A stretch of DNA of 516 nucleotides from Escherichia coli (lineage in GTDB: Bacteria; Pseudomonadota; Gammaproteobacteria; Enterobacterales; Enterobacteriaceae). Of this stretch, positions 1 to 489 are shown one piece after another. The translations under genes were made by a program, and so were the position numbers. Numbering within the stretch: the stretch's first letter is position 1; every line of letters starts with the position of its first letter. The notes beneath the pieces were generated by a model. The model made no database searches and was not told the origin of the DNA. It saw only the letters and a program-made list of their open reading frames with translations. The stretch lies in NCBI RefSeq assembly GCF_003334815.1, contig NZ_QOWO01000129.1. One strand, 5' to 3'.

Positions 1-113
1 TATGCAAGATTTGCCTGAACAGCACGATTCTGCATGATGTCGATTTGTGCGATTGCGTCCTTCTGCTGATCACCGGTTGGCTGATAAGTGGTGTTAAAAG
101 AAAATGCGCTCAT
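1..113 (-). CDS. N-terminal ~37 codons of a protein-coding gene (hypothetical protein); gene continues leftward beyond position 1
   Basis: ATG at 113..111 on the minus strand, preceded by AGGAGG (118..123) with a 4-nt spacer. An in-frame stop lies upstream at 149..147, so this ATG is the first start in the frame, and the frame stays open to position 1. Translation: MSAFSFNTTYQPTGDQQKDAIAQIDIMQNRAVQANLA. I do not recognise the family. The plus-strand frame 3 is also open over 3..131 but gives a Cys-rich peptide with no start, so the minus strand is favoured. The gene is absent from the supplied ORF track, presumably because it is edge-truncated. Confidence 0.55.
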   Translation of the reverse strand, partial: MSAFSFNTTYQPTGDQQKDAIAQIDIMQNRAVQANLA

Positions 114-117
114 GTTT

Positions 118-123
118 CCTCCT
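118..123 (-). promoter_or_regulatory. Shine-Dalgarno sequence (AGGAGG) for the minus-strand CDS starting at 113
   Basis: Plus-strand CCTCCT at 118..123 is AGGAGG on the minus strand, 4 nt upstream of the ATG. The spacer is on the short side but the SD core is perfect. Confidence 0.6.
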
Positions 124-143
124 GTGTTTAATGTTTTCAGCCC

Positions 144-158
144 CCATCACCCGTTGAG
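144..158. repeat. Direct repeat copy 1: CCATCACCCGTTGAG
   Basis: Matches 220..235 (CCATCACCCGTTTGAG) apart from one extra T. The copies start 76 bp apart, in the region upstream of the minus-strand gene. Confidence 0.8.
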
Positions 159-172
159 TTTCGGGAGCCGCG

Positions 173-188
173 GTTTTGACGTTTTGCG
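173..188. repeat. Tandem octamer GTTTTGAC-GTTTTGCG
   Basis: Two adjacent 8-mers differing at one position. The second copy starts the TTTTGCGG motif that recurs at 327..334, as a variant at 503..511 and inverted at 293..300. TTGACG (176..181) resembles a -35 hexamer, but I found no convincing -10 at 16-18 bp spacing. Confidence 0.55.
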
Positions 189-219
189 GGGACCTGCCGT
201 TTGTTCCCTCCGGTATTAA

Positions 220-235
220 CCATCACCCGTTTGAG
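220..235. repeat. Direct repeat copy 2: CCATCACCCGTTTGAG
   Basis: 15/16 identity with 144..158, with a single T insertion. Candidate paired protein-binding sites; function not established. Confidence 0.8.
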
Positions 236-292
236 AACCTTCGCCGCAAGGGGCATCACTGCCACGACCGGAAACGACTGTCCGGGGGCAGA

Positions 293-334
293 CCGCAAAA
301 GTTTTTGCCTGCTTTTGGGCAAAAAGTTTTGCGG
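293..334. repeat. 42-nt imperfect palindrome / hairpin-capable inverted repeat
   Basis: Arms 293..311 and 316..334 pair as 293-300 with 327-334 (8 bp), one G/G mismatch at 301/326, 302-309 with 318-325 (8 bp), and two G-U wobbles at 310/317 and 311/316, around a CTTT loop (312..315). That is 16 Watson-Crick pairs. No U-tract follows on either strand, so it does not look like an intrinsic terminator; an operator-type dyad or RNA hairpin is more likely. Confidence 0.85.
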
Positions 335-339
335 GATGT
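327..339. repeat. Direct repeat TTTTGCGGGATGT (left copy; partner at 503..516)
   Basis: Near-identical to TTTTGCCGGGATGC at 503..516 with one extra C. The two copies flank the GC-rich domain. The core CGGGATGT (332..339) is also the reverse complement of ACATCCCG (489..496). Confidence 0.75.
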
Positions 340-489
340 ACATTTCACCCCTGGACTGGCGGAGACGGTTGTGGCTGTCTGTGCCCCCGGCGACAGGGAC
401 TCATACGGGTGTGTGGCACCGGACACAACAACGGGCAGGGACCCGCCGCAACGACGAAGAGCGCGTGCGCGAAACGGCGTTGCCCCTCA

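Follow-up and report, generated by a model that had tools for sequence, protein, structure and literature searches.

The window, by which we mean the whole 516-nt stretch of DNA analyzed here, carries the 5' end of a gene on its minus strand and a long hairpin element upstream of it. Positions 1–113 (minus strand) hold the first 37 codons of a 98-amino-acid gene that we place in the yeiA family of plasmid R100 on the basis of its translation, the full open reading frame (ORF) in locus L001, dN/dS and a structure model. A 19-nt gene-specific leader (114–132, minus strand) carries the Shine–Dalgarno sequence, and positions 141–489 of the plus strand form a putative single-stranded DNA (ssDNA) promoter of the Frpo/ssiD type (class 1, 'ssp1'), recognized by alignment to ssiD, by its fold and by covariation.

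Thousands of Enterobacteriaceae plasmids match the window, the best at ~98.6% identity over all 516 nt. Nearly all window matches lie on plasmids, with 3,932 of the best 5,000 records typed as conjugative, and phage genomes gave no DNA match to the window. In two annotated examples, the order along the direction of transcription is psiB, psiA, hok, a Frpo-type hairpin, the 98-amino-acid gene, a DUF932 gene, an SLT transglycosylase gene, oriT, traM and traJ, an arrangement that R100 shares (Frpo hairpin, gene, DUF932, SLT, oriT). A check of the gene neighborhood, which an initial annotation of this stretch had proposed, thereby returns a hairpin directly upstream, a DUF932 gene downstream and an F-like leading region, and we assign the window to the leading region of an IncF-type (F-like) conjugative plasmid.

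The gene lies ~2 kb from the traM/SLT oriT interval in L001, L002, R100, L004 and L005. Which strand enters the recipient during transfer is established F plasmid biology. Because the plus strand of the window runs 5' to 3' away from oriT, it is, with the polarity of transfer taken from F, the transferred strand, and it is the template for the 98-amino-acid gene, which is encoded on the opposite strand. The gene points the same way as ssb, psiB and psiA and against SLT, and the plus strand of the window corresponds in orientation to the ssiD strand published as active. The arrangement in F is alike, the SLT gene (ygfA) being the only leading-region gene in the opposite orientation (Couturier et al., PMC9849209).

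Start and coding capacity of the 98-amino-acid gene

Translating the minus strand of 1–113 yields the 37-codon peptide MSAFSFNTTYQPTGDQQKDAIAQIDIMQNRAVQANLA, identical to the one given in the initial annotation, which had described a gene start with a perfect Shine–Dalgarno sequence. That description is borne out by the DNA: the start codon is an ATG at 113–111 (minus strand), and AGGAGG (118–123, minus strand) precedes it across a 4-nt spacer, AAAC. The closest in-frame stop codon 5' of the ATG is a TGA at 149–147, and the interval from this TGA to the ATG contains no ATG, GTG or TTG. With a stop codon upstream and no alternative start codon between the two, the start of the gene is well defined. 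Its reading frame extends past the window edge, which explains its absence from the ORF list, and in near-identical plasmids the full ORF is 98 amino acids, the N terminus encoded at L001:7817–8113(−) being identical over the 37 residues.

Thirty-seven open codons would arise by chance with p ~0.17, which is weak evidence for a gene, and an exact AGGAGG at a usable distance has a chance of ~0.002, which is unlikely. The decisive support is comparative. The start codon and Shine–Dalgarno sequence are kept in all relatives examined (AGGAGG in L001, R100, L004 and L010; AAGGAG in L005), pairwise dN/dS is 0.09–0.28 among five lineages, with synonymous sites saturated, and a length of 87–98 amino acids is kept in the four full-length lineages compared. 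Together with the full-length ORF, these comparisons argue firmly that the 98-amino-acid ORF is a real coding gene.

We also considered that the ORF might have no protein function, with the region serving as a leader or primer RNA made from the ssi/Frpo site and the ORF itself incidental or decaying. Frpo was originally described as a signal for priming, its transcripts are able to prime the synthesis of DNA, and many truncated or frameshifted versions of the gene exist in public data, all of which could be read in this way. However, an incidental ORF would fit poorly with the dN/dS values and the retained length, with a conserved strong Shine–Dalgarno sequence, with a helical-bundle model that is confident and with the intact form of the gene found in ~1,700 plasmids; we regard this reading as extremely improbable and treat the ORF as a gene.

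The Frpo/ssiD-type hairpin and the genes behind it

The F counterpart of the element upstream of the gene reportedly goes by several names: ssiD of F in the 1997 work of Masai and Arai, Frpo1 and Frpo2 in that of Couturier in 2023 and class 1 ssDNA promoters, or ssp1, in that of Wen in 2025. Positions 141–489 (plus strand) align end to end, at ~91% mean column identity, with F ssiD (D90178), a known Frpo/ssi element as listed by Samuel et al. (2024), and over 385 nt the hairpin region shares 92.5% identity with the Frpo1 region of F (NC_002483). Folded as ssDNA, it reaches −113 kcal/mol (z = −8.2 against shuffles) and forms an imperfect hairpin of ~330 nt, with a main stem at ~158–472 and an apical loop at ~307–320. 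RNAalifold on 10 copies, two of them from ColIb-P9, gave 84 consensus pairs, 23 with compensatory changes. The likeness to F Frpo/ssiD lies in the same long imperfect hairpin, its pairs maintained by compensatory changes, and concerns the element upstream of the gene rather than the gene itself.

At E ≤ 1, Rfam returned one negligible miRNA match (E 0.15, 20.5 bits against a gathering score of 197), and the lack of a credible Rfam match fits an element that acts at the DNA level. By homology, then, we identify 141–489 as a counterpart of the published ssDNA promoter and not as an ncRNA. The initial annotation had placed the gene next to a heavily structured regulatory or ncRNA region; the structure and its tight linkage to the gene stand, whereas the ncRNA interpretation gives way to a Frpo/ssiD promoter homologue.

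A sigma-70 consensus scan of the window found no promoter, and a relaxed scan produced only candidates matching 8 of 12 positions, from which −35 and −10 boxes could not be placed. Two weak candidates on the plus strand are TTGAGA-17-CATCAC at 231–259, with its −10 on a mismatched stretch of the stem, and TGGGCA-17-TACATT at 316–344, with TACATT (339–344) lying where 9 nt of the 3' arm bulge out unpaired; F reads TGCATT at this site. Distal to the Frpo hairpin and adjoining it, outside the ssiD homology, is a small perfect hairpin at 490–515 (CATCCCGGC...GCCGGGATG) that the fold resolves into a 9-bp stem (490–498/507–515) and an 8-nt loop, conserved in F. It is probably not a typical terminator, because no T-run follows it on the minus strand within the window; its plus-strand side lies past the window end.

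The ORF list also contains a 68-amino-acid ORF wholly within the hairpin (137–343, minus strand; also at L001 13555–13760), which public records label as 'hypothetical protein' and in some cases as 'single-stranded DNA-binding protein' or as an SSB pseudogene with a frameshift. Its frame is interrupted in F by a 1-nt indel, and 53 amino acids remain from a TTG start. It is probably not a gene, and its label looks like an annotation artefact, perhaps one that spread from plasmid SSB entries over-extended at their N termini.

Comparison of 11 Frpo-to-gene junctions showed that the repeated module ends in ...GGGGGCTGAAAAC, ~20 nt before each start codon, and that each gene family has its own leader, with AGGAGG in the yeiA type and AGGAG in ygeA and ssb; these joints delimit the leader in the window. 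Copies of the hairpin precede ssb, ygeA, a 107-amino-acid ORF and the 98-amino-acid gene. Because these genes are unrelated, the Frpo hairpin is best described as a general-purpose promoter module with different cargoes, and its link to the gene in the window would be that of a promoter to its gene, not of an element to its partner.

This bears on a proposal in the initial annotation, namely that the protein could be the partner of the adjacent element. On that reading, its target would be the Frpo hairpin or the RNA made from it, and binding might, for example, autoregulate the promoter or help priming. In favor, the hairpin lies directly upstream in four locus types (window-type, R100-type, P0120 and P0115) and two genes upstream in L011, and an exposed basic loop of the protein, H-T-P-V-I-R-K-K, is conserved. 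Yet a partner specific to this gene is hard to reconcile with a hairpin family that also precedes ssb, ygeA and the 107-amino-acid ORF, and the Frpo1 of F has a different downstream gene and still drives early expression in vivo (PMC9849209). Moreover, the protein is acidic overall and matches no nucleic-acid-binding family, and in L011 two genes, the first of them ygeA-like, separate the homologue from the hairpin. We therefore consider binding to the hairpin or its transcript very unlikely, and we keep to the promoter-to-gene relationship.

Two loci show further arrangements of the module. L004, plasmid pSTW0522-31-1 (typed IncFIA/IncFIC), has an R100-class allele and, between it and hok, an extra Frpo copy; this copy (980–1365) is followed by the 107-amino-acid ORF (1380–1703) with a much weaker Shine–Dalgarno sequence, GAGGTG. 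In L011 (1–9078; E. coli contig DADYAV010000064), psiB, psiA, hok, an IS66-family element and a group II intron reverse transcriptase are followed by Frpo, a ygeA-like gene, a 110-amino-acid ORF, a yeiA-family homologue, a 112-amino-acid ORF and an MqsA-like antitoxin. As this locus shows, cassettes in the Frpo1 operon can form a longer array.

The yeiA family and its product

The R100 (NR1) ORF at 48,440–48,736 (WP_001272251.1) belongs to the same family as the gene in the window: the window-type and R100 proteins are 69–70% identical over the full 98 amino acids (E ~1e-35), and full-length homology to WP_001272251 and WP_021558926 ranges over 69–97% identity across 98 amino acids (E 1e-35 to 1e-55). 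From map-based naming, in which F ygeA lies at 64 kb, we infer that this R100 ORF is 'yeiA', and an AlphaFold DB entry, 'YeiA protein [E. coli]', that matches our model at 73% identity is consistent with the name. Every database member of the family is labeled 'hypothetical protein'. Our literature search found no paper linking 'yeiA' with the leading region or R100 and nothing joining DUF932 with the leading region, and the supplements of Samuel et al. (2024) contain neither the family accession numbers nor the N-terminal peptide.

The family is widespread on plasmids and narrow in sequence. In PLSDB, a yeiA-family gene occurs in ~1,760 plasmids in two classes, ~270 of the window class (at least 90% nucleotide identity) and ~1,485 of the R100 class (~78%). 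Searched exhaustively with an HMM, 1.84 billion cluster representatives yielded only 50 matches, which, save one spurious match, are members, fragments or frameshifts of one narrow family; all those with a source name come from Enterobacteriaceae. The exception, P0127, is a repeat protein of 2,628 amino acids with 13 matching stretches, and we rejected it as a family member. A second profile search that included distant members added a few proteins at ~50% identity, all 'hypothetical'. Divergent relatives at 43–62% amino acid identity likewise have the hairpin directly upstream.

Identity between the window and R100 classes is unevenly distributed along the gene. When L001:7817–8113 is compared with R100 (L014:6441–6737) over nucleotides 1–120 and 121–297 of the gene, the first 120 nt (40 codons) are 96% identical, and identity over codons 41–98 then drops abruptly to 50–77% (15–23 of 30 nt per block) with dS saturated; the flanks of the gene are 87% (upstream) and 83% (downstream) identical. 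This sharp drop and the saturated dS indicate a mosaic gene in which helices 2 and 3 of the product exist as old, divergent alleles on a common N-terminal module. Because codons 41–98 diverge so strongly from R100 yeiA, the homologue in the same position, we assign the gene in the window to an allele class distinct from the R100 class.

Truncated and frameshifted alleles are abundant in public assemblies (P0066, P0051, P0109, P0076, P0122 and others), including one 67-amino-acid form on 311 contigs. They suggest recurrent inactivation or sequencing error, and, given the many broken alleles, the gene may be dispensable in many lineages.

An AlphaFold2 model from a 10-sequence alignment (mean pLDDT 81.6) predicts a three-helix bundle with helices at residues 14–41, 44–64 and 70–89 and a disordered tail at residues 1–13, so that the window codes only for the conserved N-terminal module, that is, the tail and the start of helix 1. 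Relatives at 40–60% identity conserve an M-[SG]-A-F-x-F motif within the disordered tail, the core hydrophobic residues and the inter-helix loop E-x-H-T-P-[VL]-[IV]-R-K-K-A. The initial annotation could assign no motif to the N terminus, and the full-length protein behaves in the same way: it has no match at E ≤ 0.001 in Pfam, NCBIfam, PHROGs or PADLOC, or among PDB sequences searched with phmmer and a profile, and these searches gave no match to an enzyme or DNA-binding family. Fold searches with the model returned generic three-helix bundles only and no specific fold match. Membership in the known anti-defense, anti-restriction and SOS-inhibitor families (ArdA, ArdB/KlcA, PsiB, Acr and similar) found no support, with no profile match at E ≤ 0.001 in the libraries just named and only generic fold matches. 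The initial annotation would have been refuted by a well-characterized housekeeping protein without a link to the adjacent region; the product is not a housekeeping protein and is tightly linked to the hairpin. Because it is modeled as a small, acidic helical bundle (pI 4.6) without a catalytic signature, it most plausibly acts as a non-enzymatic protein by binding a partner macromolecule.

The slot shared with F ygeA and early expression in the recipient

In F, the same slot after Frpo1 and before the DUF932 gene (ygeB) is occupied, in the same orientation, by ygeA (orf95, 95 amino acids; NC_002483 64,032–64,319). The flanks of F are 90% (upstream) and 93.5% (downstream) identical to those of the window-type plasmid, whereas the ~290-nt segment between them is unrelated: DNA homology is lost at the start codon and picks up again at the stop codon, so that the unlike segment matches the coding sequence almost exactly. 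YgeA gives no BLASTP alignment to the protein of the window at E ≤ 100, and it is basic (pI 9.7) where the latter is acidic. Membership in the F YgeA family is ruled out by this absence of sequence similarity.

PLSDB holds the ygeA-type sequence in 2,925 plasmids and a near-identical DUF932 gene in 4,205, and, judged by these totals rather than per record, most F-like plasmids appear to carry either the ygeA type or the yeiA type. The two families are not strict alternatives, since a ygeA-like gene and a yeiA-family gene coexist in the L011 operon, and they are not plain alleles of one function.

A rival reading makes the protein a dedicated partner of the downstream DUF932 protein (the equivalent of F YgeB), such as an antagonist, a chaperone or an antitoxin-like modulator, the two forming a functional pair. 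In the main types of plasmid (window-type, R100-type and P0120, the last 43% identical), the gene lies directly upstream of DUF932, but distant homologues in L008 and L011 sit in other neighborhoods with no adjacent DUF932 gene. Deletions in F make the genes of the slot look interdependent, because transconjugant frequency falls further in ΔygeA (3.9%) than in ΔFrpo1 ΔygeAB (33%), with ΔFrpo1 at 25%, and ΔygeB alone could not be constructed (PMC9849209). However, the DUF932 proteins of F and the window type differ at ~5 of 273 residues (~98% identical) and stand beside unrelated, oppositely charged upstream proteins, and a lock-and-key pair would not be expected to swap partners in this way. 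We consider a dedicated DUF932 partner distinctly unlikely.

What is known of F provides the frame for the reading we prefer. Deleting Frpo1 abolishes early YgeA–sfGFP production, and leading-region proteins of F appear before ss-to-ds conversion and stop 25–35 min after it (PMC9849209). Early, transient, hairpin-dependent expression is known for F ygeA, ssb, yfjA, yfjB and psiB (PMC9849209, PMC12672017), genes regulated by Frpo1/2 show transcript enrichment in recipient cells (PMC12672017), and Frpo transcripts are able to prime complementary-strand synthesis (bioRxiv 10.64898/2026.01.09.698686). The gene in the window follows the logic of plasmid SSB, PsiB, ArdA/ArdB and YfjB, being downstream of an ssDNA promoter with the transferred strand as template. 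Like those proteins, the protein of the window would presumably act in the recipient just after entry, and it has no sequence or specific fold relation to them.

Starting from the observed identity, position and orientation of the gene, the homology of the hairpin, the conservation of its structure and the selection on the coding sequence, we think it probable that this is a yeiA-family gene, the first in the oriT-proximal Frpo1 (ssp1a) operon, that is expressed early from the hairpin and whose product aids establishment by binding. During conjugation, the plus strand of the window would enter the recipient first, as ssDNA, and ~141–489 would fold into a Frpo hairpin that mimics duplex promoter DNA. 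Host RNA polymerase would then transcribe from the hairpin toward oriT, through the 98-amino-acid gene and the DUF932 gene, and the strong AGGAGG site would allow rapid translation. Complementary-strand synthesis, which the hairpin-started transcript may also prime, would remove the hairpin and switch expression off. Frpo-dependent early expression of this gene is extrapolated from F ygeA, ssb and psiB. On its activity we can only speculate: as an early and transient binding factor, the product would most likely bind a host or plasmid macromolecule in the first minutes in the new cell and so help the plasmid to establish itself.

A new host expresses leading-region genes before any other plasmid function, and these genes are a current focus in work on how resistance plasmids spread. 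The F ygeA gene has among the strongest conjugation phenotypes of any leading gene, and R100 and the ~1,760 PLSDB plasmids hold an unrelated, equally uncharacterized 98-amino-acid protein in the ygeA slot, a natural swap experiment that makes the yeiA-family gene a concrete candidate for functional work. The setting, Frpo-driven early genes, is known for F at textbook level, and the yeiA family is annotated but uncharacterized; we see the result as an incremental advance within a known system rather than a system of a new kind.

A more ambitious extension, which we consider unlikely, is that the slot behind the oriT-proximal Frpo is an exchangeable 'first-expressed' cassette, with the yeiA protein as a new establishment or anti-defense factor whose conserved N-terminal module (tail and helix 1) would be joined by recombination to alternative helix 2–3 modules that set target specificity. 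If true, the range of recipients open to establishment would depend in part on the cassette carried, be it YgeA, YeiA class 1 or YeiA class 2.

One further feature lies outside the window, in the gap between the 98-amino-acid gene and the DUF932 gene. At 7771–7808 of L001, just past the stop codon, an inverted repeat (CCCCTGATT...AATCAGGGG) precedes a stretch rich in A and T that includes TTGACT, and this feature could work as an attenuator or terminator, or could give the DUF932 gene a second promoter.
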